The notes under the pieces are model-generated. The model made no database searches and was not told where the DNA came from. It saw only the letters and a list, made by a program, of their open reading frames with translations. Made by a program: the position numbers and the translations under genes. From an uncultured Porticoccus sp. (GTDB lineage: Bacteria > Pseudomonadota > Gammaproteobacteria > Pseudomonadales > Porticoccaceae), in contig CAMYLT010000002.1 in the NCBI GenBank assembly GCA_947259505.1, positions 328,598 to 392,597 of the forward strand: a stretch of DNA of 64,000 nucleotides. Direction: 5' to 3'. Of this stretch, positions 10,076 through 32,101 are shown one piece after another; the stretch's first letter is position 1; every line of letters starts with the position of its first letter.

Positions 10076-10165
10076 ATTGGCCAGAAGTTACCTGGCCTCT
10101 GCCGATATCTGTATAAATCCTGTACAAACATGTAGAATTGCCGGCCTTCCATTCAGGTGATCACT

Positions 10166-12813: not shown

Positions 12814-12925
12814 TTACGATCGCTATGCTAAGAATCTTCATGAATTAAATTGGCGTGGACTAGCAAGCCATTTGCCGCTAGCTGACACGGAAGCTAGAAT
12901 ACCCGCGCTGTAACAAGATGTCTCC

Positions 12926-13002
12926 GCCCCGGTAGCTCAGCTGGATAGAGTGGCCCCCTCCTAAGGGGCAGGTCAGAGGTTCGAATCCTCTCCGGGGCGC
13001 CA
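12926..13002 (+). tRNA. tRNA-Arg (anticodon CCU)
   Basis: Cloverleaf folded by hand. Acceptor GCCCCGG/CCGGGGC, anticodon stem gcccc/ggggc, loop cuCCUaa, T-loop GGTTCGAAT, encoded CCA. Confidence 0.9.
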
Positions 13003-13030
13003 TACTTCCTTAACTTTGTCGGCTCTATCC

Positions 13031-14726: not shown

Positions 14727-15659
14727 CTAGGAAATCGGAGCGCGTTTAGGCCATCGCCTCTTCAAGCACATCCACTGTGTAGGGTCTTCTCGTATCCACT
14801 GTTCAAACAAGAGATTCAATTCGGTCGCCATCGCCAAGGCTTTTTCTCCACGGGAAAGACCCTCATCCTTCACCTCAATCGGGGGGCAGACCGTAATACG
14901 AAAACGGCCATGCGGCAGCCTTTCCGCTCTGACAGGCACCAGCTTGCAACCACTGTTCAGCGCCATTCTCGGCACCACTGTGTTTGTAGGAGTGGGCACA
15001 CCAAAAAAAGGCACTAACTCACCAGCATCAAGGCGCGTATCAACAACCAGCCCAACTGAATGGCCCTGGTTTAGCTCTTTGAGCAACTTGCGTATTCCGC
15101 CCTCAGCGGGGACCAATCTGGTACGGAAAGCGCTGCGTAAACGGGCAAAAAGTTTACTGAGATAAGGATTTGTTTCCTCGGCATAGACAGTCGAGATTGA
15201 AATACCGAACTGCGCGCCCACCAGGCAGGTCAATTGCCAAGCGCTAACATGCGCAGAGACAAACACAACCGGTTTGCCTGCAATGATTTCATCCATCACC
15301 GGGTCGACAACAAACTCGAGGTATTTGTCACGTTGGCGCCATATTTTATCCATGGAAACCAGTTCGCCGGCGGCGCGTCCCAGATTAGTAAAAATGGCTT
15401 TGACGGTCTGCTTCAGCTCCCTACCCTGAATACCCGGCACAACAAAGGGCAAATTTTTTCGAACCTTGGTGGCTTTTTGAGTGTAAGGACCCAAGAGGCC
15501 AAAGAGCCACCCCATAAAACCAATACATTGCCGGGGAGGGAGTAAACGAACAAGGCCCAACATCATTCGGAAAAACAATCCCTCTATCCACCAGGTAGTG
15601 CGCTGCAGAAAGGGGTATCGCTTAACCAGCTTTTTTGTAATCAGATAATGGGTAGGCAT
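14727..15659 (-). CDS. LpxL/HtrB-family lipid acyltransferase
   Basis: N-terminal TM segment, 310 aa, and LpxL-like layout: SAHVSAWQ at the HX4(D/E) position, VVDTRLD at the PDQD position, C-terminal EDPTQWMCLKRRW. Confidence 0.75.
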   Translation of the reverse strand: MPTHYLITKKLVKRYPFLQRTTWWIEGLFFRMMLGLVRLLPPRQCIGFMGWLFGLLGPYTQKATKVRKNLPFVVPGIQGRELKQTVKAIFTNLGRAAGELVSMDKIWRQRDKYLEFVVDPVMDEIIAGKPVVFVSAHVSAWQLTCLVGAQFGISISTVYAEETNPYLSKLFARLRSAFRTRLVPAEGGIRKLLKELNQGHSVGLVVDTRLDAGELVPFFGVPTPTNTVVPRMALNSGCKLVPVRAERLPHGRFRITVCPPIEVKDEGLSRGEKALAMATELNLLFEQWIREDPTQWMCLKRRWPKRAPIS

Positions 15660-15686
15660 GGCTATTCGATACTGGCAAAAACCAGT

Positions 15687-16322
15687 CTATTCCTCTTTAT
15701 AGCGAGGGGGTAATGACAAATTACCAGCGGTGGTTCCAAAGGCAAAATCCCAAAGGGGGGAGCTGACACCATAACGTCCATCCTGGCCCGAAAAGTGATG
15801 CAGCATGTGATAGCGTTTTAGGTAACGCAGTACCGGATTCCGCATGGGGAAATGGTGCGTAGCATAGTGAATATAGTCGTAGCAGAGGTAGCCGATAATG
15901 AAAAAGGCTCCAAATGTTTCCAGATATGCGCCGGAAAGAAATAGCGTAAACAACACCCACAATAATGACATGATCAGGATAGCGCCAGCAGGTGGCATCA
16001 CCAGCCGAGTCTTGTCCTGCGGATCATCATGATGCACACCGTGAAACAGGAACACCAATGACTTTCCTAGCTTGCTCGTCGCATCATAGTGGAACACAAA
16101 GCGATGCAGGCTGTATTCCATCAATGTCCAGACCAATAGGCCCAACACTGCCATCAGACTTAATTCCACAATTGGCATCTGATAAACAGCAACACTCCGC
16201 CAGATAAGCACCAGAGCGACCGGCAACCAGAGTAGCAGCGGAATAATCGGGTGGACGTGAGTAAGAGATTCCAACAGTGGATTCTTGAACAGTCTTATCG
16301 ATGAGCTTTCAACAGGTTGCAT
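15687..16322 (-). CDS. Membrane fatty acid hydroxylase / sterol desaturase superfamily (di-iron)
   Basis: Four or so TM helices and histidine boxes HRFVFH, HGVHHDD, HYATHH, HMLHH. Confidence 0.8.
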   Translation of the reverse strand: MQPVESSSIRLFKNPLLESLTHVHPIIPLLLWLPVALVLIWRSVAVYQMPIVELSLMAVLGLLVWTLMEYSLHRFVFHYDATSKLGKSLVFLFHGVHHDDPQDKTRLVMPPAGAILIMSLLWVLFTLFLSGAYLETFGAFFIIGYLCYDYIHYATHHFPMRNPVLRYLKRYHMLHHFSGQDGRYGVSSPLWDFAFGTTAGNLSLPPRYKEE

Positions 16323-16474
16323 GCTTGTATGTTACCAATAATCAATCTGTGTCGTCAGGCTCGTTTAAATTGGCCTACGCAGTTTAAGTTACCTGTCGAT
16401 AAATGCCCTTGCCGGCATTGCCGCTTGTTCCTAATCGGGCCTGGTTCGACCTAATGTAATACGCGTCTGACTGT

Positions 16475-17401
16475 TCAATCCCTAAAATGAGGCAGTGTCA
16501 ATTTCAGACCGTCTTGTAACGACACACGTGGTTGCCAACCAAGTGCCTCCGCGAGAGCGCCACTACCACAGACCCAATCCGGGTGTCTCAATTCTCTCAG
16601 CTTACCGGGCGTCAACATGGGCTGATAGCGAAAAAGAGCCGATATACACAAATTACACTTGGCTATCATATTCAACAGCCAATACGGGATAAACACAGGT
16701 CTCACCTTACGCCGGAATACCTTCGAGGCGACCCCTACAATCTCATCCCAGCTGTATCCGTTGGGAGCTGGGTCAGAGAGAGTAAAGACTTCCCGAGGCA
16801 CTCGCTCTGCACCTAACCAAGCTATCACGGCCGCCACCAGATCATCTATATAGACGAGAGAAACCCGACTATCCGCTGAGCCAGGAATTAATGCTAAGCC
16901 ACGGGACATTAACTGAAATACCGGCAGCATCTCTCGATCACCTGGGCCATATACGGCCGGCGGGCGGAAGACGGTCAGCTCGATCTCTGGGGCGGCTTGG
17001 AGCGCAGCCTGCTCTCCAAGAAACTTGCTTGCAGCATAATGGGAAAGATCAGGTTCTCTCGAAGCCAGTGATGACATGATTAGCACTCTTGGCTTACTGT
17101 CTGACTGACTTACCGCTGCAATCAACTGCTCTACGCCTGTAACATTTGCGGGATAATAATCTTGTAGCGAACGACCGCGCACAGCACCGGCACAGTGAAT
17201 AACGGAATGACATCCAACGAGTAATTGTTCAAGCGCAGCGCCGTCGGTGATAGAACCCTGTACCAGTTGAACGCCGGACTCAGTTAAGCCCTGGGCTTTG
17301 GACGGTGTTCGAACGAGGACTTTCAGCCGGTGCCCCTGTGACAGCAGCTCTCGGCAGATACTGCTCCCGATAAACCCCGTGGCGCCGGTTACCGCAATCA
17401 T
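16475..17401 (-). CDS. NAD(P)-dependent SDR (epimerase/dehydratase fold); candidate ceramide reductase (CerR-like)
   Basis: MIAVTGATGFIGS Rossmann motif and YAASK catalytic motif. The function is inferred from position between the acyl-AMP ligase and the rest of the ceramide set. An alternative TTG start is at 17410. Confidence 0.6.
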   Translation of the reverse strand: MIAVTGATGFIGSSICRELLSQGHRLKVLVRTPSKAQGLTESGVQLVQGSITDGAALEQLLVGCHSVIHCAGAVRGRSLQDYYPANVTGVEQLIAAVSQSDSKPRVLIMSSLASREPDLSHYAASKFLGEQAALQAAPEIELTVFRPPAVYGPGDREMLPVFQLMSRGLALIPGSADSRVSLVYIDDLVAAVIAWLGAERVPREVFTLSDPAPNGYSWDEIVGVASKVFRRKVRPVFIPYWLLNMIAKCNLCISALFRYQPMLTPGKLRELRHPDWVCGSGALAEALGWQPRVSLQDGLKLTLPHFRD

Positions 17402-17475
17402 TTCTGACAAAATTGTGACACCCCCAAGTTACCCGAGCCTCACAGCATAAGCGAATCGGCGAGTATCACCCTATG

Positions 17476-19254
17476 TCAGGCGCTGATACGTAGTGGTTTT
17501 TTTTCAAAAGAATCAACGTGATCATTGGCCGAGCCTGCATTAAGGCTTGCCATAAATTCCAGTCGAGCTTTCGAACGAGATAATTTTCCCGAGGAAGTGA
17601 CCGGCAAGGAATGCGGAGGCACTAGTTCAACGCGGCAATCCAGGCTTAACTCCTCACGAACCAGTCCGGTAAGGCGTTGTAACAGCTCATCCCTTTTGGA
17701 TTCATCTGCCTCCCGACACTGTACCAATACGACACAGTGCTCATCCCCATCCGGCTCAGCTGCGGAAAATGCCAATACATCCCCCACTCTGACTTCCGGC
17801 TGGGTTTCACAGAGATGCTCGATGTCCTGTGGCCAGATATTTCGACCATGAATGATAATAAGATCTTTGATACGGCCGGTTATGGTTAAAGTGCCATTGG
17901 AACGATAACCAAGATCACCGGTGTTGAGCCAACCGTCCTCACTCAACGCATGGCGAGTTTCCTCAGGCATACCAAAGTAACCGGACATGACGCTGGGACC
18001 TGACAAGTGAATAAGCCCGGTACAGTTATCGCCAAGCACATTCCCTTCTTTATCCCGAACCTCCACCTTGTAATCAGGGAGGGGCGCACCACAGTTAACA
18101 AAGTGTCGCCCTAAACGTTTATCGCCCTCATCCATCAATACCACTTTGTGGTGATTCAGGAGCTGCTCATGATCGACGTAATCGGTCGAATAACCTTGCC
18201 CCAAGGGAGAGAAGCTGACGCCAAGGGTACACTCCGCCATACCATAACATGCAAGGAACGCCTTCGGATTAAAGCCCGCAGGAGCCAATGTTTCAGCAAA
18301 CAGGTCCAGGCTGCGGGTGCGAATCATCTCTGCACCGATGCCCGCCACACGCCAATTGCTGAGATCGTAATTATTCGCTTCACCATTGCGCAGGCGCCGC
18401 GCACAGAGGTCGTAACCAAAGCATGGGCTGAAAGAAATCGTTGCACGTGTTTTGGTTAACAGGCTCAACCACTGTCGGGGGCGCATGGCAAATTCAAGCG
18501 TATCCAGGTAATCAACAGACAACTGGGCCGCGACAGGTACAAATACAAAACCAACCAAACCCATATCGTGATAGAACGGTAACCAGGACATACAGCGGTC
18601 TTTCGGCTGCACCTTGACCCCATGAGTGATAATTCCAGCGAGATTGCTCATGGCAGTGCGGTGCCTGATCATGACACCTTTTGGGAAGCGGGTACTGCCA
18701 GAAGTATATTGGAGATAGGCAATATCGTTGGGATCAATCAGCGGAAGCGACACATCAGCCGCCGCTGGCATCTCATCAAAGGTTTCCGGCTTGTCGACCA
18801 TGCGAATGGGAAGCCCTTCCCCGGCCTCCTTGAGGAATGACAAATAGCCCTCAGAAGCAACGGCCAATTGGGCGTCGCAGGCTTTCAGCAGCCGGTGTAA
18901 TTGAGACACGTAAGAGGTATGGGCACCAAGCTTAACGGCGGCGGGGAGCGGTACCGGCACCAGACCGGCGTATTGACTGGCAAAAAAGAAGAGCAGGAAG
19001 TGGGGAGCAGTCTCCGCCACCAAAGCAACCCGGTCTCCCTTCACAAACCCAAGCCCGATCAATTTTTTTGCCAACTCAACTGCATCATCACGCAGCTGGC
19101 GATAGCCCATTTGACTGTAGATTGAACCACGTCCGGTATAAAAATTGACTCCGGTTTCGCCTTGGGCAGCATAATCGAGGGCAGCAGGGAGCGAAGCAAA
19201 GTCAGCAGGGCGAAAAGGTAATTTGTGGGTAGTTGGCGTTGGTTCAAGCTGCAC
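17476..19254 (-). CDS. Fatty acyl-AMP ligase / acyl-ACP synthetase
   Basis: 592-aa adenylate-forming enzyme: YLQYTSGSTRFPKGV, GYGMAE-type block YGMAECT, TGDLGY. GTG start is preceded by GGTGAGG. Confidence 0.85.
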   Translation of the reverse strand: MQLEPTPTTHKLPFRPADFASLPAALDYAAQGETGVNFYTGRGSIYSQMGYRQLRDDAVELAKKLIGLGFVKGDRVALVAETAPHFLLFFFASQYAGLVPVPLPAAVKLGAHTSYVSQLHRLLKACDAQLAVASEGYLSFLKEAGEGLPIRMVDKPETFDEMPAAADVSLPLIDPNDIAYLQYTSGSTRFPKGVMIRHRTAMSNLAGIITHGVKVQPKDRCMSWLPFYHDMGLVGFVFVPVAAQLSVDYLDTLEFAMRPRQWLSLLTKTRATISFSPCFGYDLCARRLRNGEANNYDLSNWRVAGIGAEMIRTRSLDLFAETLAPAGFNPKAFLACYGMAECTLGVSFSPLGQGYSTDYVDHEQLLNHHKVVLMDEGDKRLGRHFVNCGAPLPDYKVEVRDKEGNVLGDNCTGLIHLSGPSVMSGYFGMPEETRHALSEDGWLNTGDLGYRSNGTLTITGRIKDLIIIHGRNIWPQDIEHLCETQPEVRVGDVLAFSAAEPDGDEHCVVLVQCREADESKRDELLQRLTGLVREELSLDCRVELVPPHSLPVTSSGKLSRSKARLEFMASLNAGSANDHVDSFEKKPLRISA

Positions 19255-19791
19255 TAAGAATGCCTCACCTTAATAACATGTTCCCTAAGCCCGCTTGGCG
19301 TTCTGCTAACACAAGTAGCTTACTTTAATTTATTGCGCATTGGGCAACAAATAGAACCGCACTCGTCACCCTAACCGGGCACCGGGATGGCCGATTGCAG
19401 GCTTCACCCTATAAGCCTCACACTCTCGGCATCAAATCCCGACGCACATTAAATGATAACTTGAGACCATACTCATAAAAATAACTAATATTTTCAAGGT
19501 AAAACAGCATTCCCACTGCAAATCAACCATACAGGTGAAGCCTGTCGCAAGTCTAAACAGGGATACTTAAGGAAACCTTAAACGTCGACACAACACCAAA
19601 AAGCTACGCAGCCAGTCACGACGACCACTCCGCCCCCACAAAAGACTCGGTATAAAAACCCAGTTAAATTACAACGTTATGACAATCAACAGATCTACCC
19701 TAAAGTCGTACATGGAGGGTTGGTTGTAGGCTCAAAAACCGGGCTGTATACTCCTGCCTTTTTTAGCATCTGCCATTCCGGACGAGCGCTT

Positions 19792-20931
19792 ATGGGACCT
19801 GATACCGATATCATCGTCACCCCCGTACAGGGCCGGAGCGGCAGACGCGACTTTCTCCGCCTGCCAGGGAGAATCTATCGCAACGATCCCCACTGGATCG
19901 CCCCGCTGGAGCTGGAACAACGCATTCGCGTGTTCGGCAAAAACCCTTTCTTTGAACACGCCCAATGCCAGGCTTGGACCGCAACCAGGCAGGGCAAAAT
20001 CGTGGGCCGCATCACCGCACAAATCGATGAGCACTACCCGCAACACCACGATGGCCACAAACTCGGTTATTTCGGGCTGCTGGAAGCTGAGGACGATGGT
20101 GATGTATTTGCCGCATTGCTCACCACGGCCGAGGACTGGTTACGGCAACGGGGCATGACCGAGGTCCAAGGGCCGTTTAATCTGTCCATCAATGAGGAAG
20201 TCGGTCTGTTGGTGGAGGGTTTTGAGGCCCCACCCTTCGTCATGATGGGCCACGCCCCGCCCCACTATGCCCAACGTGTTGAAGAACAGGGTTACCAAAA
20301 AACGAAAGACCTGCTGACCTACACCATCCATCCGGACTTTGTGACCCCCAGGGTGATGCAAAAACTGGTGGACACCACGGGCAGTGTTGTCACCGTGCGC
20401 TGTTTGCGCCGCAAACAGCTGGTCGAAGAATTCGAGATCATGCGCGACATCTTTAACGACGCCTGGTCCAACAACTGGGGATTTGTCCCTTTTACCGAGG
20501 CGGAGTTCTCGGATATAGCCAAGACCCTGACCTTCCTGCTGGATGATGATTATGTCCAGATCGCGGAAATTGATGGTCGCCCGGTCGCCTTTATTGTTGC
20601 CCTGCCCAATATCAACGAAGCGGCAAAAGATCTGCAAGGTAGACTTTTACCCTTTGGCTGGCTGAAACTCCTGTGGCGCCTCAAGGTACGCTATCCCCTC
20701 TCAGCTCGTGTCCCGTTGATGGGCGTGCGCAAGGAATATCAGCACGCTCGACTAGGTCCCACTTTGGCCTTTATGGTGATTGATGCCGTAAGAACAGCGT
20801 TGGTAAAACGGGGTATTGAAAATGTTGAACTGGGATGGATTCTGGAAAACAACGATGGCATGCGCAATATCATTGAATCGATAGGCGGCAAGCAGTACAA
20901 AAAGTACCGCGTCTATCAAAAGCCGTTATAA
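19792..20931 (+). CDS. GNAT-fold N-acyltransferase, about 380 aa; candidate bacterial ceramide synthase (bCerS-like)
   Basis: The C-terminal half has GNAT features (MGVRKEYQHARLGPTLAF, ELGWILENNDGMRN). The role is inferred from clustering with spt, ACP, the acyl-AMP ligase and the SDR. Confidence 0.55.
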   Translation: MGPDTDIIVTPVQGRSGRRDFLRLPGRIYRNDPHWIAPLELEQRIRVFGKNPFFEHAQCQAWTATRQGKIVGRITAQIDEHYPQHHDGHKLGYFGLLEAEDDGDVFAALLTTAEDWLRQRGMTEVQGPFNLSINEEVGLLVEGFEAPPFVMMGHAPPHYAQRVEEQGYQKTKDLLTYTIHPDFVTPRVMQKLVDTTGSVVTVRCLRRKQLVEEFEIMRDIFNDAWSNNWGFVPFTEAEFSDIAKTLTFLLDDDYVQIAEIDGRPVAFIVALPNINEAAKDLQGRLLPFGWLKLLWRLKVRYPLSARVPLMGVRKEYQHARLGPTLAFMVIDAVRTALVKRGIENVELGWILENNDGMRNIIESIGGKQYKKYRVYQKPL

Positions 20932-20944
20932 CCTGAAGTACGCC

Positions 20945-21760
20945 ATGATCGATTCCCAAAACAACAACACCCTCACCGCAATTGTGCTGGCCGGCGAACG
21001 CTGCAGTACAGACCCCCTGCGCGAATTTCACGGCGCAGCCTGCAAGGCGTTAATCAAAATTGACGGCCAGCCAATGATCCATCGGGTGCTGGACGCATTG
21101 ACCTCCTCCAGTCAGATAGCTGACATCTGGTTATCCGGCCCGCAGCAGACATCGGTGGATGCCGATGATCGACTCAGCCGGGGCCTGGCCAACGGTGAGA
21201 TAACCTGGCGGAGCCCCGAGGCGACGCCCAGCACCAGCGCCTTCCGGGTCATGAGCGAAATACCTGTCGACCGGAAATGTCTGCTGACCACGGCGGATCA
21301 CCCGCTGCTGGACGCCGAAATCATTGACACATTTTGCCGGGAGAGCCTGGCCACGGGCGCCGATGTGGTGGTGGGAATGGCTCCCTATCCGCTAGTTCAC
21401 GCCAGTTTCCCGATGATGAAGAAGACGGTGCTGCGCTTTCAGGACGGCGAATTCTGCAACTGCAACCTGTTTGCTTTCCTGACCCCCGAGGGACGAAAAA
21501 TTGCTGACTTTTGGCGCAAGATCGAAAATCAGCGCAAAAAACCCATCATTTTGATTGGCCTGCTGGGATGGTGGTCGGTACTTCGCTATCGGTTTGGAAT
21601 GTTGTCGCGGGACGAGGCATTAGCTCGCCTGTCGAAGAAACTGGGTTTAAAACTCAAGGCGGTCACCCTGCCCTACGGCCATGCCGCCGTCGATGTGGAT
21701 TCCATTTCAGATTTCACCCTGGTGGAACAAAAACTAGCCGCCGCCCCCGCCAATTCCTAA
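20945..21760 (+). CDS. MobA-like NTP-transferase domain protein
   Basis: N-terminal AIVLAGERCSTDPL...KALIKIDGQPMI matches the LAGG-type nucleotidyltransferase signature. It starts 13 nt after the preceding gene. Confidence 0.6.
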   Translation: MIDSQNNNTLTAIVLAGERCSTDPLREFHGAACKALIKIDGQPMIHRVLDALTSSSQIADIWLSGPQQTSVDADDRLSRGLANGEITWRSPEATPSTSAFRVMSEIPVDRKCLLTTADHPLLDAEIIDTFCRESLATGADVVVGMAPYPLVHASFPMMKKTVLRFQDGEFCNCNLFAFLTPEGRKIADFWRKIENQRKKPIILIGLLGWWSVLRYRFGMLSRDEALARLSKKLGLKLKAVTLPYGHAAVDVDSISDFTLVEQKLAAAPANS

Positions 21761-21808
21761 GACACAAGCCCCAAGACACTTCCCCTAAGATACTTGGCTA
21801 CCTCGCTG

Positions 21809-22732
21809 CTAGCGGGGTATGGCAAATGATTCGGTGCCTACACTCACGAAACATGCCCCATCGTGCTGGTAGCGGCGACTGTCCAGCTGCAATATCCAGC
21901 CAGTTCCCGCGCTCTCCAGACTGTAGCGATTATATAGTGCCGTCTCTCCATGCTGCCCCAGCGCTGAAGAAGAGGGAACGCCGATCACCGGTGCCGTTTT
22001 TCCACCCGGCAGTTCAAGCATTTTATGTTGCCACTTGTGGCTGTGCCCGTGCAGCAACAATTCGACGCCGTGGCGACGGATGACATCGAGCAGTGCCTCC
22101 GCATCGCACAAGCGCTTTCGCCATTTTTCCTGCCCGGGGATCGGCGGATGGTGCAGATAAACCACCCTGAACAGTCCCTGTGAAGCTGTCTCTGCAAGCA
22201 GTGCGGACAGTTTCTTCAGCTGGGCACTGCCCAGTTTTCCTGTGGCGAAAAAAGGCGGTGTCGGCAGCGCACTGTTCAGGCCAATATATGCAATGCCATT
22301 CCGCACCTTCAGGGACGGGAAAGCCTGTGCCAGTGATGTCGGCTCTGCAGCGCCATCGGAGCGCAGATAGGGGAGCCACTGGAAGTAGGTATTCTGCCAG
22401 GACTCAACCACATAGCTGTCGTGATTTCCCGGCGCCACACTGATATCGCCAGCCACCGCCAACTGATCGAGCCAACCGCGAACCTGGGAGAACTCGTCCG
22501 GCAGTCCCAAGTGCGTCAGATCCCCGCTAACCAGCAGGTGGTTTACAGGCAAACTCAGATCGGCACGTAAGGCAGTCAGCACCGCAGTGCTGTGCTCACG
22601 ACGGCGCTTGCGACGCCAGGAAAGATAGCCCAACAATCTCTTGCTGAGCAGCTGTGAAAAAACCACGCCACTGAGATCCGACAGATGGAGATCGGAAAGG
22701 TGGACAAATACCTGTTTTGCTTCAGCACTCAT
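21809..22732 (-). CDS. Calcineurin-like metallophosphoesterase
   Basis: Motifs HLSDLH, SGDLTH, GNHD, LHHPP and GHSH occur in canonical order. Alternative GTG start at 22741. Confidence 0.8.
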   Translation of the reverse strand: MSAEAKQVFVHLSDLHLSDLSGVVFSQLLSKRLLGYLSWRRKRRREHSTAVLTALRADLSLPVNHLLVSGDLTHLGLPDEFSQVRGWLDQLAVAGDISVAPGNHDSYVVESWQNTYFQWLPYLRSDGAAEPTSLAQAFPSLKVRNGIAYIGLNSALPTPPFFATGKLGSAQLKKLSALLAETASQGLFRVVYLHHPPIPGQEKWRKRLCDAEALLDVIRRHGVELLLHGHSHKWQHKMLELPGGKTAPVIGVPSSSALGQHGETALYNRYSLESAGTGWILQLDSRRYQHDGACFVSVGTESFAIPR

Positions 22733-22787
22733 CGCTTGCACTGCCCGTTATCCGCCGATTAGGAAAGAGCCGATGACACCACCACCG

Positions 22788-23987
22788 CTAGGCAACAGGA
22801 ATGCCGACAGGGCGCGCCGCATTAACGGCAGCGAATGCGGCAATGATATGGTCAATCTGCTCGGGACTGTGGGCCGCGCTAACACTGCAACGCAGCATAC
22901 TTTTCTCGGAGGGAGACGCCGGTGGCACCACTAGGTTGACATACACTCCTGCCTCCAAAAGCTTCTGCCAGCTTTGCAGAGCCTCGACCCGATCCTCAAT
23001 GGTGACGGCCACCACCGGGCTGACACTGGGGCCCACAGCCAGCCCCAACTGCTTCAGCCCCGTATAGAGAAGCTGGGCGTTTTCCCACAAACGCTCTCTG
23101 CGCTGCGGCTCGGCAGTGATAATTTTCAGTGCGGTACGCACTGAAGCAATCACACCGGGCGTCGCCGAGGCGGTGAAGATATAAGAACGCACACTGAACC
23201 GGATGGCCTCCAGCAGGGCATGTCGGCTGACACAAAAACCGCCCGTAGCACCAAGACTTTTACTAAACGTGCCCGCAATAAAATCGACGTCATCCTCCAC
23301 GCCCGCCGCTTCGGCAGCACCGCGCCCATGCTCACCCAGAACGCCCATGGAGTGCGCCTCATCTACCAACAAATAACCACCATAGCGTCGCTTCAGTTCG
23401 GCAATTTCTTTCAGTGGGGCAACGTCGCCAAGCATGCTGTAGATGCCTTCTACCACGATCAGAGTGTTACCGGTCCGGTCGCCCAATCGTCTCAGACGTT
23501 TTTCCAGGTCATTGGTATCACTGTGCTTAAAGCGGATAATTTCCGCACCGCTCAGCTGGGCACCCGCGTAGATGCTGGCGTGACTGTCCGCATCCAGCAG
23601 AATGACATCACCGGGTCCCGCCAGAGTTGCGCACATTCCCTGAGTGGCCGCATAGCCGGTGGTAAACACAATGGCCTGGTCCACACCATAAAACTGCGCC
23701 AGTTCCTGCTCCAGGGCGATGTGTTCGGCAAAGGTGCCGTTAGCCATGCGGGAACCCGTCGTTCCCGTGCCCCAGGTTTCTGCCGCAGCCTGCGCGCTGG
23801 CAATGCAGCGGGTATCAAAAGACATACCGAGATAATTATTGGTGCCGGCGAGGATAACCTGATGGCCGTTAACCACCCCCTCAGTTGCCGACGTAATTTT
23901 TTCTGTTACAGCTCCGAATGGAACGATACCAATGGCTTCGAGTTCTGCGCGAACCCCAGCCATAGACTGAAATTTATCGAGAAGCAT
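22788..23987 (-). CDS. spt: Alpha-oxoamine synthase, serine palmitoyltransferase type
   Basis: 399-aa PLP enzyme (AGTNNYLG, DEAHSMG, GTFSKSLG Lys motif) directly downstream of a dedicated ACP. ATG at 23987 is preceded by GGAGG. Confidence 0.8.
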   Translation of the reverse strand: MLLDKFQSMAGVRAELEAIGIVPFGAVTEKITSATEGVVNGHQVILAGTNNYLGMSFDTRCIASAQAAAETWGTGTTGSRMANGTFAEHIALEQELAQFYGVDQAIVFTTGYAATQGMCATLAGPGDVILLDADSHASIYAGAQLSGAEIIRFKHSDTNDLEKRLRRLGDRTGNTLIVVEGIYSMLGDVAPLKEIAELKRRYGGYLLVDEAHSMGVLGEHGRGAAEAAGVEDDVDFIAGTFSKSLGATGGFCVSRHALLEAIRFSVRSYIFTASATPGVIASVRTALKIITAEPQRRERLWENAQLLYTGLKQLGLAVGPSVSPVVAVTIEDRVEALQSWQKLLEAGVYVNLVVPPASPSEKSMLRCSVSAAHSPEQIDHIIAAFAAVNAARPVGIPVA

Positions 23988-24036
23988 GGAAAAGGTATTA
24001 CCTCCTGATGAGGGAACAGGAGCCGGAATGCCCCGG

Positions 24037-24276
24037 CTAGCCGTTGAGTTCTTGCAGCTTGCGAGCCAGATCACCAACGGTATTGATATCAGGCAGAATA
24101 TTCAGGGAGATAGAAATATCAAAATGGTCTTCAATGTGCTCTATCAACTCCATCACTTGCAGTGAGCTCAGTCCCAACTCCGTTACCAAGTCTGTATTCT
24201 CAGTAAACTCAACATCTTGTTTGATCGTACGCAGCACTGTGTAGATGTAATCAACGTAGATATTATAATTTGGCAT
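24037..24276 (-). CDS. Acyl carrier protein (dedicated)
   Basis: 79-aa acidic four-helix pattern with attachment motif LGLSSLQVMEL. Confidence 0.75.
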   Translation of the reverse strand: MPNYNIYVDYIYTVLRTIKQDVEFTENTDLVTELGLSSLQVMELIEHIEDHFDISISLNILPDINTVGDLARKLQELNG

Positions 24277-24449
24277 TGTTTAGAACCTGGCTCGGTTTTC
24301 TGTCGGGCAACGATATCACACCATTCGCCTTGCACCGCAAGCGTCAGTTGGATAGATTGCAGCAACCGGGACTATACCCTAGGGCCATTATTCATTGCCA
24401 TACCAATGCCTCCCCCTTGCGTCCAAACAATTTCTTTCGAGACAAGCTG

Positions 24450-25559
24450 TTGAGTTCATTTCAAAGCACTCCAATCAGCCCCGCCACTAATACTCCCAGG
24501 GTATGGCTGATCAATGCCTATCGTGCCGGTGAACTGAGCCAGATGAGAGCCTTGGCCGATGCCTTAGGTTGGCCTTGGGAAGAAAAGGCGCTGACATACC
24601 GGAAATGGCGTTTCCGTACCAATCTGTTTCGCGGCAGCGACCTCAGTGGAATAGATCTGCCTCAGTCAGCACAGCTGGAAGCGCCCTGGCCTGACTTGAT
24701 TATTTCTGCGGGCATGCGCAATGAGCCCGTGTGCCGCTGGATCAGAAATCAATCTGGCGGAAAAACCCGTATCGTTCACCTCGGCCGACCTTGGGCCGAT
24801 CCGGAACAATTCGACCTGGTCATTACCACCCCCCAATACCGGCTGCCCCTGCGGCCCAATGTGTTGCAGAACACACTCCCTTTGCACAGCATCAACGGCC
24901 AGCTACTCCGCGACGCCAGAGAACAGTGGACCGAGCAGCTGAAAGACCTGCCAAAGCCCTTGATCGCCGTCATTGTTGGCGGCAACAGTGGACCATACAC
25001 CCTGGGGTTAAACGCGGCGCGACGGCTAGCTCGGCAGGCATGTGAACTGGCAAAAGCAAAGGGCGGTTCCCTACTGATCACCACCAGCGCCCGCACACAC
25101 CCCTCTGTAAGCCGCTACCTGAAATCCATTAGCGGTACACCAATGGCCTTTTACCAATGGAAGGCCAACGATAGCAACAACCCCTACCTCGGTTATCTGG
25201 CCATGGCGGATGAACTCATCGTCACAGCAGACAGCGTCTCCATGCTGTCTGAAGCCTGTGCCACAGGAAAACCTGTACACATGTTCGACTTGGGTATCGG
25301 CAAGTACAGCATGCGGGGCGATAGCGATAATTTTGAGGGGGACAATGACTTCTGTCTCCCAACACTGGCTTATCGAGCACTGATGCGCTGGGGATGGCAG
25401 CGGCTGAGCAGGGATATCACCCTGATACACCGACAGCTGGAGCAATCCGGGCGTGCCTGCTGGCTCGGGACGCCAACCCCGGAAACACCCAATAGAGATG
25501 ATAGTGACATGCAACAAGCTGTGAAATGGGTTCGGAAACTAATGGGCCTGGCTGGCTAG
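24450..25559 (+). CDS. ELM1-family protein (mitochondrial-fission-ELM1 / DUF1022 type, putative transferase), paralog 1
   Basis: RVWLINAYRAGELSQ, APWPDLIISAGMRNEPVCRWIRNQSGGKTRIVHLGRPW, FDLVITTPQY, VIVGGNSG. The start is uncertain: the ORF opens at a TTG at 24270 but would overlap the divergent ACP start, and TTG at 24450 gives a length like paralogs 2 and 3. Confidence 0.65.
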   Translation: MSSFQSTPISPATNTPRVWLINAYRAGELSQMRALADALGWPWEEKALTYRKWRFRTNLFRGSDLSGIDLPQSAQLEAPWPDLIISAGMRNEPVCRWIRNQSGGKTRIVHLGRPWADPEQFDLVITTPQYRLPLRPNVLQNTLPLHSINGQLLRDAREQWTEQLKDLPKPLIAVIVGGNSGPYTLGLNAARRLARQACELAKAKGGSLLITTSARTHPSVSRYLKSISGTPMAFYQWKANDSNNPYLGYLAMADELIVTADSVSMLSEACATGKPVHMFDLGIGKYSMRGDSDNFEGDNDFCLPTLAYRALMRWGWQRLSRDITLIHRQLEQSGRACWLGTPTPETPNRDDSDMQQAVKWVRKLMGLAG

Positions 25560-27266
25560 CTCTTCACGACTCACCAACGTAGCTCCCTCTCTGCCCAGCT
25601 CATAAATTCGATCTGCCGCATCCACGATCGCCGTGTCGTGTGAGACGGCCAGGATGGTCAGCTCCGATTTCAACTGCGCCATGGTTTCACAAACCTCTCG
25701 CTCACTGACCGGGTCCAAGGCACTGGTTGCCTCATCCAGGATCAACAGTTGAGGACGTTTTATCAACGCGCGGGCAATAGCAATACGCTGCCTCTGCCCT
25801 CCAGATAGCTTGCCGCCGCGCTCACCAACGACAGTGTGAATGCCGTTAGGAAAAGATGACACGAATCCCCAGGCACCTGCCTGTCGCAAAGCCCTTTCCG
25901 CATCTCCTTCGGTGAGTCCACTCTCCCCAAGGGTGACATTGTGGAGAACGGTATCATGTAGCAATACCGTTTCCTGTGGGACATAGCCAATGGACTGACG
26001 CCAGGCACGAATATCAAGCTTTCCAAGCGGCGTACCCGCCACCAGAATTTCACCGGACGTAGGTTTGAGCAGTGCAATGGTGAGGTCAATAATGGTGGTC
26101 TTGCCCACACCGGAGGGACCAATCAGTGCCGTTATACCGCCCACGGGTATTTCCAGAGATACATCACTGAAGACCTTATTGCCATCGTAGGCGAAACCCA
26201 CACTTCGAAATTCAATTGCATCGGTCAAGCAAGGCGCAACTCCTGCATCCAAGTGCTCTCTGGAGGCAGTCGCTTCATCAATCGATTTCTGGATAGACCA
26301 ATAGGCGCTCTCGCTCTGCACCATACTCTGGTACTGTTTCTGCACCTTCCCCACAAAGGAAAAAGACCGTCCCAACGTCACCACCAACACCATTACCGTA
26401 GCGAACTCCATGGCGTAGGTAACTAACGCCACATACATGCCCAACGCGATGAATACGGTGAACATCACTTCCTGCACAGAATTCAGCAAGGCCTTGCTGA
26501 AAACCTGTCGCCTGAGAGATTTATTGAGGCGCGAGGTCTCCATCGCCAAAACGGAATCGGCGAGGTGCTCACGCGCCATGGCCTTAAGGGGTTTCACCGA
26601 TTGCAAGGTATCAGTCAAACGTGACATCAGGGAACTCATCAGATGAGTCTGCTTTTTTCCGGCTTTTCGAGTAATCATTACCAAAAAGTGAGAAACCCCA
26701 ATAACCAGCAATCCTGCTCCAAGGCTGAGGAGCGCCGCCCGCCAGGAAACGGCAACGGCAACACAGCCGTAGATCAGCGCCTGGATTAAGAACGTAATGG
26801 CGGTAGCGCCACAGACAAATGAATCAGAAGATCGCTGTGCCTCGGTAGCCATGGCATTCGTTAATTGACCGATGGGTTTGTGCAGAAAGTATTCCCACTT
26901 ACTGCGCAGCATGGCGCGCAGCATTTCCAGTCGCAGATCAGTGCCAATCTGGGCCGCGGTGTACCCGACTTGGCGCTGAGCAACAAGCAGCAACAAACTC
27001 TTTAATGCCACCCCGATAACAACTATGACCAACAGAGGTCCGATAGTTGGCTCTATGCCGACATTGGCCAGAAATTCGACAACATACTGCTCGAAAGGGT
27101 TTTGCGACCCTAGATCATTTCCCGATCCGGATTTAATCGCTACGTTCAGCAACGGCAGCAACGCGGATAACCCCACCCCCTCAGCCAGGGCGGATAGAAA
27201 CAATGCCAGCAACATCAATAGCGTTTGCCATCGGTATTTTCTGAAGAAATTGAGCATTAAATGCAT
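25539..27266 (-). CDS. ABC exporter, fused TMD-NBD (MsbA-like lipid flippase type)
   Basis: Six-helix TM domain then NBD with GPSGVGKTT, LSGGQRQRIAIARA and LILDEATSALD. The start is ambiguous (27302 GTG, 27266 or 27257 ATG). Confidence 0.85.
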   Translation of the reverse strand: MHLMLNFFRKYRWQTLLMLLALFLSALAEGVGLSALLPLLNVAIKSGSGNDLGSQNPFEQYVVEFLANVGIEPTIGPLLVIVVIGVALKSLLLLVAQRQVGYTAAQIGTDLRLEMLRAMLRSKWEYFLHKPIGQLTNAMATEAQRSSDSFVCGATAITFLIQALIYGCVAVAVSWRAALLSLGAGLLVIGVSHFLVMITRKAGKKQTHLMSSLMSRLTDTLQSVKPLKAMAREHLADSVLAMETSRLNKSLRRQVFSKALLNSVQEVMFTVFIALGMYVALVTYAMEFATVMVLVVTLGRSFSFVGKVQKQYQSMVQSESAYWSIQKSIDEATASREHLDAGVAPCLTDAIEFRSVGFAYDGNKVFSDVSLEIPVGGITALIGPSGVGKTTIIDLTIALLKPTSGEILVAGTPLGKLDIRAWRQSIGYVPQETVLLHDTVLHNVTLGESGLTEGDAERALRQAGAWGFVSSFPNGIHTVVGERGGKLSGGQRQRIAIARALIKRPQLLILDEATSALDPVSEREVCETMAQLKSELTILAVSHDTAIVDAADRIYELGREGATLVSREELASQAH

Positions 27267-27681
27267 GTGTGGGTAATCTCTGGCCTTAAATCCTGACAGC
27301 ACATTCTAGGCTGACCGACGTTGCAAAATGATAACTTCCTAGACAACGAATGACGTCATCACCAACGCAGCGAGACTCTGCTGTTTCAGCAAAACGATCC
27401 CCCAACAGGGAGTAAAGCGGCCGTCATTTTAGCCCGAATGGATCACTGATGTTGATTCCAGGCAGAAAAAAGGCCGAACAACTTGTCATCTGCCTTTTAA
27501 CCTGCACCGCAAAGCAGGAAAACAACCCTATCTCCCAGTGTAAGGTTCATCACCCAATTCCCGATAGCCCGTGTCAAGGAGGGCCGTCAGCCACTCGCAA
27601 CCCTATCCCCCTCACTGGCCATTTTTGGGGCCTTACTGCATACTTCCGAGCCTTATTTATTAAACAGCGTAATGGTCAAAA

Positions 27682-28608
27682 ATGTTGCAATTGAGTGATG
27701 GGATAAAAAAAGCACTGGTAATTGCCCCCACGGAAATATTACCCAGCAAGTTGAGAGTATCCCTGCGCAAAAAACATCTCGGCCAGCTGGAACTCGCTCG
27801 TGCCCAGCGAGCCAATTTGCTCATTATCGGCCATCCAAAAAGCGGCAACACCTGGCTGAAAGTCATGATGTCCCGCCTCTATCAGGTTCGCTACGGCCTG
27901 CCCAGCTCCAAATTGATCAATACTGACGAGTTAGCCCGGAAACACCCCGGCATTCCTCGCCTGGCCGCCACCAACGGCTGCTACAGCTATGAACAGGTGG
28001 TCGGCAATCTGCTCACGCCCCAGGCCCATGACAACATCCTGAAGCGCAAGCCGGTGCTGTTCCTGGCGCGCCAGCCGATCGATATTGCCGTTTCCTGGTA
28101 CCACCAGTTCACCAAGCGCCAGTCCCGCGCCAAACAGGAGTTGATCAATCACTCTATTGATCATCCGATTGACCGCCACAGCATTGGCCTGTGGGATTTT
28201 GTGCGCCACAGTGATATCGGTTTACCGTTCCTGATCAACTACCTGAATACCTGGTATGACAATGTCCAGGCCCTCGACAGTGCCGCTATCATCCGCTACG
28301 AGGATCTCCGGGCTGAACCGGCAGAAACCCTGGCCAAGGTCTTCCAGCTAATGGGTGAAACCTTTACCGAACAAGAAATCGATGAAGCCGTAGCCTTCGG
28401 CTCGTTTGATAACCTACGTAAACTGGAAACAAGCGGCCACTTCCGGCAGGGCGGCATGCGCTTGCAAAACGCCAACGATCCCACCACCTTTAAAACGCGC
28501 AGAGGCAAGGTCGGCGGCTACAAGGACGACTTCAGCGAGGCACAGGTGGCCGAACTCGAACAGCTGGTACGCGACCACCTCAATCCGGCACTGGGCTATC
28601 GCCTGTAA
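27682..28608 (+). CDS. PAPS-dependent sulfotransferase 1
   Basis: 5'-PSB GHPKSGNTWLKVM, 3'-PB ARQPIDIAVSWY, C-terminal RRGKVGGYKDDF. Confidence 0.85.
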   Translation: MLQLSDGIKKALVIAPTEILPSKLRVSLRKKHLGQLELARAQRANLLIIGHPKSGNTWLKVMMSRLYQVRYGLPSSKLINTDELARKHPGIPRLAATNGCYSYEQVVGNLLTPQAHDNILKRKPVLFLARQPIDIAVSWYHQFTKRQSRAKQELINHSIDHPIDRHSIGLWDFVRHSDIGLPFLINYLNTWYDNVQALDSAAIIRYEDLRAEPAETLAKVFQLMGETFTEQEIDEAVAFGSFDNLRKLETSGHFRQGGMRLQNANDPTTFKTRRGKVGGYKDDFSEAQVAELEQLVRDHLNPALGYRL

Positions 28609-28634
28609 CAACACTTCACTCGAGCCAGACCACC

Positions 28635-29783
28635 ATGGACAAGCCAGCCGACGACCAACGTCCCGATCCTGTTCCCGTTATCTGGCTGATCCTCGGTGAC
28701 AAGCAGGGTGATAACAGCCAGGTAGAAACCCTGATCGAAGGGTTGGGCTGGCCGCACACCCGCAAATACGTGCACATGCGGGATGAATTCGTGCTCGGCA
28801 AACCGAAGTTCGGGGCCACCCTCGACCACCTGGATTTGAGCCACTCCGATGCCCTGGAAGCGCCTTGGCCGGATCTCATCTTCACCGTCGGTCGGCGACC
28901 CTCCATGGTGGCCCTGTGGGTGAGAGAGCAGTCCGGCAACCGCACCCGCATCATCCTGGTGGGCAAACCTACCGGCAACATGCCGGACTTCGACCTGGTC
29001 ATCGCCAGTAGCGAGAACCAACTGCCACCGCTGGACAACCTGGTCCCCATCACTCTGCCCATGATGCAGGTTGATCCCGCGAAGATTGCCGCAGAGGCGG
29101 AACGGTGGAACAGCAGGTTGGCAGCACTGCCGCGGCCACTGGTCGCCATTCTGGTGGGAGGCGAAACCGGGCCATTCGTCATGAATGAAGCCATCGCAGA
29201 CAAGCTGGCGGCTCAGGCCCGCCACATTCAGAACGACTTGGGTGGCACCGCCTATGTCACCACCAGCCGGCGCACCAAACCCGAAGTAGTGCAAGCGATC
29301 AAGCGTGCCCTGCCCCAGGAAACCCCTTTCTTCGCCTGGTCTGCCGATGCCGGGGACAATCCCTACAAAGCCCTGCTGGGTGCGGCGGATGGCTTTATCG
29401 TTACCGGCGACAGTATTTCGATGATGGTGGAGGTGATCCTCATGCGCAAACCGCTCGCCATCTTCCCCCTTTCCCAAGGCTTCGCGGGCACGGTGGATCA
29501 GCTGCGCCGCTCCCTGATCAGGCGACTGTTCAATCCCCGCTGTGAAACAACCCTGGATCGCTTACGCCAGCGTCTGGCGCGATTTATTTTCCGATTTGAT
29601 CGCTTCAAGCTGCTGAGTTCCACTCGGGACTTCAACTACTTTCACAGAATGCTGATCCAGCAGGGACTGGCGGTATGGGCCGGAGAGACTCTCAAGCCCC
29701 CCGTCAATTTCGCAGCAAACGATCTGGATAGGGTGGTAACCCGAATCAACGGACTGTTTGAACCGTCGACGAATGCCGACTGA
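28635..29783 (+). CDS. ELM1-family protein, paralog 2
   Basis: VIWLILGDKQGDNSQ, APWPDLIFTVGRRPSMVALWVREQSGNRTRIILVGKP, FDLVIAS, ILVGGETG. It is the divergent member of the three. Confidence 0.7.
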   Translation: MDKPADDQRPDPVPVIWLILGDKQGDNSQVETLIEGLGWPHTRKYVHMRDEFVLGKPKFGATLDHLDLSHSDALEAPWPDLIFTVGRRPSMVALWVREQSGNRTRIILVGKPTGNMPDFDLVIASSENQLPPLDNLVPITLPMMQVDPAKIAAEAERWNSRLAALPRPLVAILVGGETGPFVMNEAIADKLAAQARHIQNDLGGTAYVTTSRRTKPEVVQAIKRALPQETPFFAWSADAGDNPYKALLGAADGFIVTGDSISMMVEVILMRKPLAIFPLSQGFAGTVDQLRRSLIRRLFNPRCETTLDRLRQRLARFIFRFDRFKLLSSTRDFNYFHRMLIQQGLAVWAGETLKPPVNFAANDLDRVVTRINGLFEPSTNAD

Positions 29784-29823
29784 GATTCGCCAGGGTCACA
29801 CCCCGGCTGGCCAACTCAGCGCC

Positions 29824-31888: not shown

Positions 31889-32101
31889 ACCTTCTCCAAT
31901 TCTTCTAACCCCAATTTATCTTTGATGAAACATCACACTACCGGCGATAAGACAATAGCCACCGGTGGCGGCCGCCAGCATTACATGATTAGCGATATTT
32001 CTCTTGTGCAAATAAGCTACTAATCATCGATTCACCAACATCAATAGAAGCCAAAAAATGTTAGACGTCACTCTCGCTTATCACACTTACAAATAAATAG
32101 T

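Follow-up and report, generated by a model that had tools for sequence, protein, structure and literature searches.

A 64,000-nt stretch of contig CAMYLT010000002.1 from an uncultured Porticoccus sp. (hereafter the window) carries a region that is very probably (roughly 85%) the functional core of a Caulobacter-type sphingolipid pathway, as judged from its sequence, in a Porticoccus-like marine gammaproteobacterium. All five Caulobacter-type ceramide genes (aasR, acpR, spt, bcerS, and cerR) are encoded here, cerR being recognized by synteny and a two-step similarity. A ceramide locus had been proposed in an earlier reading of the window from its letters and open reading frames (ORFs), and the gene map of this sequence-only reading was accurate: every ORF was found at the coordinates and on the strand given there. 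Its limits (16475-24276) were too narrow. The sphingolipid locus runs far past them, in an island of approximately 29 kb (14.7-43.4 kb), of which approximately 19 kb (24270-43425) lies past the ceramide core. The ceramide core in gammaproteobacteria is already published and automatically annotated, and the window adds one more lineage. The larger value lies in the surroundings, where a recurrent set of glycosyltransferases, sulfotransferases, hydroxylases, and acyltransferases predicts new head groups.

The ORFs of the window were mapped and scanned with Pfam and NCBIfam profiles. The two collections bear out every family assigned in the nine-gene region 14727-24276, whose features are as follows.

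14727-15659, minus strand: LpxL/PatA-family acyltransferase, terminal gene of the aasR unit (Pfam Lip_A_acyltrans, 1e-41)
15687-16322, minus strand: Scs7/FA2H-like membrane fatty-acid hydroxylase (Pfam FA_hydroxylase)
16475-17410 (start possibly 17401), minus strand: CerR-like extended short-chain dehydrogenase/reductase (SDR; Pfam Epimerase/NmrA)
17476-19254, minus strand: AasR, predicted dedicated acyl-ACP synthetase (fatty acyl-AMP ligase; NCBIfam NF006624)
19255-19791, no strand: divergent aasR/bcerS spacer (537 bp, GC 0.454)
19792-20931, plus strand: bCerS, GNAT-related, approximately 380 aa (49% identity to Caulobacter bCerS)
20945-21760, plus strand: MobA/CofC-like nucleotidyltransferase, predicted CC_1153 orthologue (Pfam NTP_transf_3)
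21809-22741, minus strand: calcineurin-like metallophosphoesterase, predicted CC_1158 orthologue (Pfam Metallophos)
22788-23987 (ORF opens at TTG 24077), minus strand: Spt, predicted serine palmitoyltransferase (NCBIfam NF047599)
24037-24276, minus strand: AcpR, dedicated acyl carrier protein (ACP; Pfam PP-binding)

Enzymes of the ceramide core

In the proposed pathway, AasR would adenylate a free fatty acid and load it onto AcpR, and Spt, a pyridoxal phosphate (PLP) enzyme, would condense the acyl-AcpR with L-serine to give 3-ketosphinganine. Both steps are assigned from orthologues with assay data: biochemical work has covered the E. coli BL21 versions of Spt, AcpR, and AasR, and Spt was assayed with labelled serine (PMC9386255). 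By orthology to genetically defined Caulobacter genes, bCerS would then N-acylate 3-ketosphinganine in the cytoplasm, and CerR would reduce the 3-keto group to form dihydroceramide. Acylation followed by reduction is the Klein-lab model; the order is debated between two studies (PMC11087976 and PMC9386255), and the sequence cannot decide it.

The oxoamine synthase at 22788-23987 is confidently predicted to be a serine palmitoyltransferase, not BioF or Kbl. With NF047599, the serine palmitoyltransferase equivalog of NCBIfam, it scores 598 bits (cut-off 500), and it falls under the cut-offs of the bioF, Kbl, and ALAS (5-aminolevulinate synthase) models, as well as that of the CFB-group serine palmitoyltransferase model (364 bits, cut-off 640). 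Among solved structures in the PDB, Sphingomonas SPT scores 416-418 bits, Kbl approximately 220 bits, and BioF approximately 188 bits. The motifs TFSKS (containing the PLP-lysine), DEAH, and DADSHAS are retained. The protein is 56% identical to E. coli Spt and 57-58% identical to the Caulobacter-type Spt of the primer-verified contigs described below. The phylogeny that the sequence-only reading had proposed for separating Spt from BioF and Kbl was calculated, and it agrees with NF047599 and the PDB ranking. In this neighbour-joining tree, the protein falls within the group of bCerS-linked Spt sequences, to which the E. coli enzyme belongs, and is distant from E. coli Kbl (33% identity) and BioF (29%).

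An Spt that uses alanine, glycine, or cysteate would instead lead to 1-deoxyceramide-type or sulfonolipid-like lipids. Three sulfotransferases are encoded in the same island, sulfated and sulfono-1-deoxyceramides of unexplained origin are found in marine water columns (PMC11334938), and the PDB relatives of Spt include a cysteate-C-fatty acyltransferase structure. However, that structure scores 186 bits against 416-418 bits for SPT, and the match to NF047599 and the 56-58% identity to the E. coli and Caulobacter enzymes point to serine, the amino acid with which the BL21 enzyme was assayed. No cysteate synthase was seen, and the CpgB-like kinase of the island needs a C1 hydroxyl group, which only serine provides. 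Use of another amino acid is very improbable, and serine is retained as the predicted substrate.

The gene for AcpR (79 aa, PP-binding) and spt share a strand, with 49 bp between the end of acpR and the start of spt. AcpR has 44% identity to the product of E. coli acpR, and the serine of the GL(S/E)S motif is aligned. Other alpha-, beta-, and gammaproteobacteria also have acpR immediately before spt (PMC9386255). A dedicated ACP of the AcpR type immediately upstream of spt, which characterizes the Caulobacter-type pathway, is thus present here. AasR passes NF006624 (780 bits, cut-off 600) and is 46% identical over 560 aa to its E. coli orthologue, whose BL21 counterpart (ECD_02851) is the assayed enzyme (PMC9386255).

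Caulobacter references were obtained by matching the Caulobacter NA1000 spt and bcerS cloning primers (PMC11087976 supplement) against metagenome contigs. Contig L087 (66.7% GC) has sites for both spt primers (forward and reverse) and for the forward bcerS primer, and contig L089 contains both bcerS primer sites. The Caulobacter-type contigs reach only to acpR and do not include cerR. One of the four primer matches (L088, GC 0.405) was dropped because it had no bCerS ORF at the match. Aligned with the ORF that the two NA1000 bcerS primers delimit in L089, the window bCerS shows 49% identity across 378 of 379 residues (E 9e-127); its identity to E. coli YghO is 48%. This full-length comparison confirms the GNAT protein as bCerS, as the sequence-only reading had suggested. 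A sequence search of bCerS against solved structures gave nothing usable.

The SDR at 16475-17410 possesses the GxxGxxG and YxxxK motifs, and its PDB relatives include NDUFA9-type complex I subunits. Caulobacter CerR has likewise been reported to be NDUFA9-like (PMC11087976). Its homologue adjoins aasR in 44 of the 81 bCerS-type loci that were compared. The protein is 45% identical to Azotobacter CerR, through which it is linked to the Caulobacter enzyme: Avin_44260 was published as 38% identical to CC_1164 (PMC11324152 S2E). The E. coli CerR orthologue is also similar to CC_1164 (PMC9386255 supplement). From the SDR motifs, the NDUFA9-like relatives, the synteny, and the published two-step similarity, the protein is predicted to be CerR.

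Two start sites differ from the ends of their ORFs. The start of Spt is most likely ATG 23987, giving 399 aa, and not TTG 24077, because this agrees with alignments to E. coli and Sphingomonas Spt and with gene calls in relatives. With this start, the overlap between Spt and the ACP therefore vanishes, and 49 bp lie between them. The GNAT ORF opens at TTG 19720, and alignment and the gene calls of relatives support ATG 19792 as the bcerS start. Gene calls on two independent assemblies (approximately 97% identical to the window) agree on 379 aa for bCerS, 592 aa for AasR, 399 aa for Spt, and 79 aa for the ACP.

Gene order, spacer, and distribution

Within each unit, the genes are separated by 13-152 bp. 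The division into three units that the sequence-only reading had described stands as a strand layout. Their status as transcription units rests on the strand switches and the short gaps. Promoter and terminator scans of the region were at chance level and gave no support for the unit boundaries; folding of the convergent junction (21761-21808) was no better than that of shuffled sequence, and folding at the 3' end of the aasR unit was at the background level. The commonest layout in the 81 loci has two divergent units, with spt-acpR-cerR-aasR on one strand and bcerS and the nucleotidyltransferase gene (NTase) on the other. It is found in Azotobacter, Pseudomonas, Nitrospirales, Salinisphaera, and E. 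coli. The three-unit layout is common, gene for gene, to the window and six Halieaceae-type loci, including that of Litorirhabdus singularis. It is a lineage variant of the two-unit layout, in which acpR-spt has moved beyond bcerS-NTase and joined the phosphoesterase gene.

The aasR/bcerS spacer (19255-19791) contains no ORF of at least 45 aa, consistent with the non-coding gap of 537 bp that had been noted. An Rfam search of the spacer gave no match at E up to 1. Its further description as an AT-rich hub could not be maintained. Its GC content is 0.454, compared with 0.536 for the window, but the other spacers here have values of 0.43-0.49, and the acpR gene has 0.417. Repeats in the spacer are short and at chance level only, and comparison with the equivalent spacers of ten other loci revealed no common block beyond the shuffled expectation. 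The spacer is 91-93% identical to those of close relatives, compared with 97% for the flanking genes, and diverges approximately as fast as synonymous sites. A special element was therefore rejected on the absence of Rfam matches, repeats, ORFs, and cross-family blocks together with the lower conservation. The spacer is an ordinary divergent promoter region; in all taxa examined, the corresponding spacer is approximately 400-750 bp long and AT-richer. A TGTATACT box is located at 19745-19752, approximately 40 nt upstream of the bcerS start, and in Halieaceae loci (L007-L009, L013, L015, and L017) bcerS is preceded by a TGTATACT or GCTATACT box at a distance of approximately 40-55 nt. This box is probably an extended -10 promoter element that was missed by the consensus scan.

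The sequence-only reading placed the locus in a gammaproteobacterial host, and the source is indeed Porticoccus-like, the 90% cluster mates of its proteins being named Porticoccus sp., a genus of Gammaproteobacteria, Cellvibrionales, Porticoccaceae; the window also carries EpmC, RlmM, and PdxB-like dehydrogenase genes, which are typical of gammaproteobacteria. Its view that a gammaproteobacterial copy is notable did not hold. The E. coli BL21 enzymes have been assayed, the five-gene set has been described in alpha-, beta-, and gammaproteobacteria (PMC9386255), and contiguous clusters have been described in Azotobacter vinelandii and Pseudomonas luteola (PMC11324152). A near-identical Spt (90% cluster) is already named 'serine palmitoyltransferase [Porticoccus sp.]' by NCBI. 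The protein collection contains more than 7,900 homologues of bCerS, and at least 596 sites in species-representative genomes were confirmed to hold a relative of it. Of the 80 best-matching loci, no fewer than 42 have gammaproteobacterial titles; Porticoccaceae, Halieaceae, Thiogranum, Rhodanobacter, Salinisphaera, Azotobacter, Pseudomonas, Klebsiella, Citrobacter, and Escherichia are among the 80. More widely, Spt-like genes were reported in metagenome-assembled genomes (MAGs) of 38 phyla (PMC11334938). Recent horizontal acquisition is not favoured: the cluster does not stand out from the remainder of the window in GC content or skew, and Porticoccaceae and Halieaceae group together in the Spt tree.

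These results place sphingolipid capacity in Porticoccaceae and Halieaceae, which are described in the literature as seasonally abundant coastal bacterioplankton. Many sphingolipids of marine lipidomes have no known producer (PMC11334938); therefore, the capacity of these clades is useful for reading such lipidomes. In the literature searched, no paper linking Porticoccaceae or Halieaceae to sphingolipids was found.

The cluster could be a silent or decaying remnant from which no lipid is made, as in E. coli K-12 and O55:H7. In the O55:H7 cluster, the annotation marks cerR (L001 8675-9589) as a pseudogene that contains an internal stop, and aasR of A. vinelandii DJ is a pseudogene (PMC11324152 S2E). 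However, all nine ORFs of 14727-24276 are intact in three independent assemblies. Relative to the two assemblies with approximately 97% identity, the core enzymes have dN/dS values of approximately 0.03-0.14, while the spacer diverges like synonymous sites. The core ceramide genes are under purifying selection. In addition, the GC content of the cluster matches the genome, and the layout is retained across Halieaceae and Porticoccaceae. A remnant is very unlikely.

Several points weigh against a functional Caulobacter-type pathway in this organism. The assignment as a whole rests on homology and synteny, and neither the substrate amino acid of Spt nor the chain lengths can be read from the sequence. 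The link of CerR to Caulobacter runs only through the two steps given above, and the transcription units are inferred from strand and spacing only. The cluster is decaying in some gammaproteobacteria and its presence does not guarantee activity, though the ORFs here are intact and constrained. With these points taken into account, the functional core remains the reading that we favour.

Head-group genes and the wider island

The nucleotidyltransferase and the metallophosphoesterase had been regarded as passengers of the ceramide genes. They are not. Over its full length, the former shares 34% identity (E 2e-39) with CC_1153, the gene that immediately follows bcerS in Caulobacter, and its gene is next after bCerS in 64/81 loci. 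The latter is 40-42% identical over its full length (E 5e-62) to a 306-aa ORF at the CC_1158 position of the Caulobacter-type contigs, with a homologue in 35/81 loci. In Caulobacter, CC_1153 is necessary for making CPG2, a second-stage anionic lipid, and CC_1158 contributes to it (PMC11324152). Thus, the two proteins are firmly predicted to be the CC_1153 and CC_1158 orthologues and to belong to head-group chemistry, not to the ceramide core. Their Caulobacter counterparts both work at a stage later than ceramide, on construction of the anionic head group. The remaining features of the island are as follows.

24270-25559 (the call in a relative starts at the equivalent of 24450), plus strand: ELM1/GtrOC1-like putative glycosyltransferase 1 (Pfam Mito_fiss_Elm1, 9e-63)
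25539-27302, minus strand: MsbA/HepA-like ABC exporter (Pfam ABC_membrane and ABC_tran)
27682-28608, plus strand: SULT-like 3'-phosphoadenosine-5'-phosphosulfate (PAPS) sulfotransferase 1 (Pfam Sulfotransfer_1)
28635-29783, plus strand: ELM1-like putative glycosyltransferase 2 (Pfam Mito_fiss_Elm1, 2e-52)
29824-30450, minus strand: 2-oxoglutarate (2OG)-Fe(II) oxygenase (Pfam 2OG-FeII_Oxy_3; also in L082, L083, and L091)
30920-31888, minus strand: GT2-like protein, weak match (Pfam Glycos_transf_2, E 2e-4, under the gathering score)
32102-32896, minus strand: second 2OG-Fe(II) oxygenase, weak match (Pfam 2OG-FeII_Oxy_3, E 5e-5, under the gathering score)
32929-33684, minus strand: protein with faint methyltransferase similarity (homologue in the Thiogranum locus L014)
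33960-34961 and 34958-35914, plus strand: two tandem sulfotransferases (Pfam Sulfotransfer_1, E 4e-22 and 5e-24)
35938-36876, minus strand: GT8-like putative glycosyltransferase (58% identical to its paralogue at 38211-39158; DPD motif in both)
36889-38151, plus strand: ELM1-like putative glycosyltransferase 3 (Pfam Mito_fiss_Elm1, 3e-61)
38211-39158, minus strand: GT8-like protein by predicted fold (AlphaFold2 and Foldseek), without a Pfam or NCBIfam match
39441-40370, minus strand: CpgC-like protein (predicted CC_1161 orthologue, Tam41-like; faint Tam41_Mmp37 match)
40382-41416, minus strand: CpgB-like lipid kinase (predicted CC_1160 orthologue), candidate ceramide kinase (Pfam DAGK_cat)
41499-42395 (ORF to 42851), minus strand: protein with a signal-peptide-like N-terminus (sequence inspection; no family match)
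42574-43425, plus strand: Sfp-type 4'-phosphopantetheinyl transferase (PPTase), right edge of the island (Pfam ACPS and AASDHPPT_N)

The cpgB- and cpgC-like genes are adjacent here, as in Caulobacter. The CpgC-like protein is 29-30% identical over approximately 300 aa (E approximately 2e-34) to the ORF at the CC_1161 position of L087, and the CpgB-like kinase is 29% identical over 279 aa (E 4e-20) to the corresponding L087 ORF. They are encoded near bCerS in 36/81 and 31/81 loci, respectively. These two genes predict ceramide-1-phosphate and a head group of the phosphoglycerate type: the CpgB-like kinase would form ceramide-1-phosphate, and the CpgC-, CC_1153-, and CC_1158-like proteins would elaborate the phosphate head group. 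CpgA (CC_1159, a CDP-alcohol phosphatidyltransferase) and CC_1152, both of which are needed for CPG2, have no homologue in the 64-kb window at E 1e-5 and may be encoded elsewhere in the genome. No match was found in the window for the HIT protein CC_1157, for lptF/lptG paralogues of the E. coli or Caulobacter type, or for the genes that lie between the NTase and the kinase in Azotobacter and Pseudomonas. Pfam matches to LptC or flippase families did not turn up among the scanned ORFs of the window; CC_1166-1168 are not on the comparison contigs. AcpR may be activated by the Sfp-type PPTase, whose ORF runs over the upstream extension of the ORF at 41499-42851. The latter likely starts near 42395, at the Met before a hydrophobic leader.

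The closest solved relative of the hydroxylase is yeast Scs7p (E 1.8e-30, whole domain), which is labelled as a ceramide very-long-chain fatty acid hydroxylase. The window protein has three hydrophobic segments and His boxes, and its gene is also present in Halieaceae loci (59-66% identity). The gene for the LpxL-like protein follows after 27 bp. This protein is below the cut-off of all 16 NCBIfam LpxL/LpxM/LpxP models (the best, NF005120, gave 166 bits versus 273) and shows slight similarity to LpxM of A. baumannii and to mycobacterial PatA. Its gene is near bCerS in 11/81 loci, including those of Halieaceae, Salinisphaera, and Nitrospirales, and also in the Chromatiales locus L090. The pair of a hydroxylase and an acyltransferase, with two acyltransferases in Halieaceae and Chromatiales, accompanies bCerS in distant taxa and thereby suggests that a 2-hydroxy-acyl ceramide is formed and subsequently O-acylated. 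By its family, the Scs7-like enzyme would probably 2-hydroxylate the amide-linked acyl chain; addition of a further acyl chain by the LpxL-like enzyme is speculative. A literature search on LpxL-like enzymes in sphingolipid loci found nothing relevant.

The ABC exporter is also below the cut-off for MsbA (250 bits versus 602). It is encoded near spt in 24/81 loci, and in Azotobacter, Pseudomonas, a betaproteobacterial MAG, and Desulfobacterota its gene closes a same-strand series that begins with aasR-cerR-acpR-spt. Loci bearing an exporter of this type are L033, L039, L044, L074, L024, and L034. The inner-membrane sphingolipid flippase is said to be still unidentified (PMC11087976). Because the exporter gene directly follows spt in several taxa, its product is a concrete, though speculative, candidate for this flippase.

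Six putative glycosyltransferases (three ELM1-like, two GT8-like, and one weak GT2-like), three SULT-like sulfotransferases, and two 2OG oxygenases are encoded in the island. ELM1-like protein 1 occupies the same position in Halieaceae and Porticoccaceae loci; a sequence search of ELM1-like protein 2 against solved structures gave nothing usable. The family of the GT8-like protein at 38211-39158 is another lead, as it is very conserved and unannotated. It has more than 5,700 homologues that are 70-85% identical and all labelled 'hypothetical', spans Porticoccaceae, Halieaceae, Chromatiales, Thiohalobacter, and Arenicellales, and is conserved above the core ceramide enzymes. The AlphaFold2 model (pLDDT 78.7, pTM 0.81) gave top Foldseek matches that are all GT8 proteins (3tzt, LgtC, glycogenin, and LARGE1), with moderate TM-scores. 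The model predicts a GT8-like retaining GT-A fold for this family. A GT8-like gene is also present in the sphingolipid-type islands L090 (a Chromatiales MAG) and L091 (another gammaproteobacterial MAG).

Sulfotransferase 1 is 69-70% identical in Porticoccaceae loci, and its PDB relatives are cytosolic alcohol, steroid, and phenol sulfotransferases. The same gene mixture stands beside bCerS in Thiogranum (L014) and in other gammaproteobacterial loci (L025), and it surrounds the GT8-like gene in L090 and L091. The island is also found again in Porticoccaceae. In L091, a sulfate/molybdate-type ABC importer (substrate-binding protein, permease, and TOBE-domain ATPase; 6600-9134) lies amid sulfotransferase and ELM1-like genes, which is consistent with a demand for sulfate. 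A literature search on sulfotransferase-linked bacterial sphingolipid clusters found nothing relevant.

We tentatively propose that the island builds an undescribed class of outer-membrane lipid by means of paralogues of the lipopolysaccharide (LPS) machinery. The product would be a 2-hydroxylated, possibly O-acylated ceramide that bears a phosphorylated head group, an oligosaccharide resembling the core of lipooligosaccharide (LOS), and sulfate esters. Decoration of the head group would fall, speculatively, to the ELM1-, GT8-, and GT2-like proteins together with the sulfotransferases, and flipping of the lipid to the MsbA-like exporter. The main rival for the outer genes is service to LPS/LOS: the island would mainly be a locus for the LPS/LOS core and late acylation of lipid A, and the interleaved ceramide genes would make plain ceramide or a simple phosphoceramide. 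The LpxL-, MsbA-, GtrOC1/ELM1-, LgtC-like GT8, and sulfotransferase families are typical of LPS/LOS biosynthesis, and the Chromatiales island L090 has a gene resembling Wzy_C O-antigen ligases. Both products also end in the outer leaflet of the outer membrane, and co-location for co-regulation is plausible. However, the scores of the LpxL-like and ABC proteins, far under the LpxL/LpxM and MsbA cut-offs, mark them as paralogues, not housekeeping enzymes. The decorating genes have sphingolipid genes to either side (14.7-24.3 kb and 39.4-41.4 kb), the same mixture appears again in Thiogranum, Chromatiales, and other gammaproteobacterial loci, and the ABC gene directly follows spt in several taxa. 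Moreover, the Caulobacter LPS-machinery paralogues LptF2/G2 serve sphingolipids (10.64898/2026.04.12.717747). A role mainly in LPS/LOS is rather unlikely, and a decorated ceramide, itself less likely than not, remains our tentative proposal for the island.

Two further observations concern the surroundings. The minus-strand ORF at 10088-11416 (442 aa) has an odd composition and mirrors the U32 peptidase gene at 10157-11494 (plus strand), to which it is antisense; it is almost certainly not a gene. Both assemblies with approximately 97% identity carry a PAS-HD-domain gene of approximately 1 kb between the methyltransferase gene and tRNA-Arg(CCT) (L082 1701-3251, and L083). This gene is absent from the window at 12814-13015, a strain-level indel beside the tRNA gene.

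Comparison with known systems

The sphingolipid pathways of Bacteroidota and myxobacteria and the sulfonolipid (capnine) pathway of Bacteroidota share a PLP-dependent alpha-oxoamine synthase with the window. Some products of Bacteroidota and myxobacteria have hydroxylated and acyloxyacyl amide chains. Unlike the window, these bacteria have a different Spt subgroup, lack a dedicated AcpR/AasR pair of this kind, and usually have unclustered genes (PMC9386255, PMC11334938).

In the yghO-spt cluster of E. coli B, BL21(DE3), and O55:H7 (ECD_02850-02854), yghO diverges from aasR across an AT-richer 403-bp spacer, as in the window, and the identities to the window proteins are 44-56%. However, aasR-cerR-acpR-spt form a single unit in E. 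coli and are followed by lptF/lptG paralogues. A CC_1153-type gene after yghO, a hydroxylase gene, and an LpxL-like gene are lacking there, whereas the window has all three. The clusters of Azotobacter vinelandii and Pseudomonas luteola (PMC11324152) have bcerS-NTase and CpgB/CpgC-type genes in common with the window, and the MsbA-like exporter is present in the related loci L033 and L039. They differ from the window in the single aasR-cerR-acpR-spt(-ABC) unit and in the presence of CpgA, CC_1152, and LptF2/G2. In turn, the CC_1158-type phosphoesterase, the hydroxylase, the LpxL-like gene, and the sulfotransferases of the window are missing from them.

The Caulobacter crescentus locus (CC_1152-CC_1168; CCNA_01210-01226) and the window have all five ceramide genes in common, with cerR as a predicted counterpart. 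In both, bcerS is followed by a CC_1153-type gene, and CC_1158-, CpgB-, and CpgC-type genes are present; identities to the primer-verified contigs are 29-58% over the full length. Unlike Caulobacter, the window lacks homologues of CpgA, CC_1152, CC_1157, and LptF2/LptG2, and its acpR-spt genes lie on the other side of bcerS. The hydroxylase, the LpxL-like protein, the ELM1-, GT8-, and GT2-like proteins, the sulfotransferases, the 2OG oxygenases, and the MsbA-like exporter distinguish the window from Caulobacter.

The loci of Halieaceae (Litorirhabdus singularis IMCC14734 and Halioglobus MAGs) differ from the window in a second LpxL-like paralogue between the hydroxylase gene and cerR and in an extra gene of approximately 1.3 kb between the phosphoesterase gene and spt. 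Unlike the window, they have no sulfotransferase gene within 10 kb. Their order is otherwise that of the window: LpxL-like gene, hydroxylase, cerR, and aasR; bcerS and NTase; phosphoesterase, spt, and acpR; ELM1-like gene; and ABC exporter, with identities of 41-72%.

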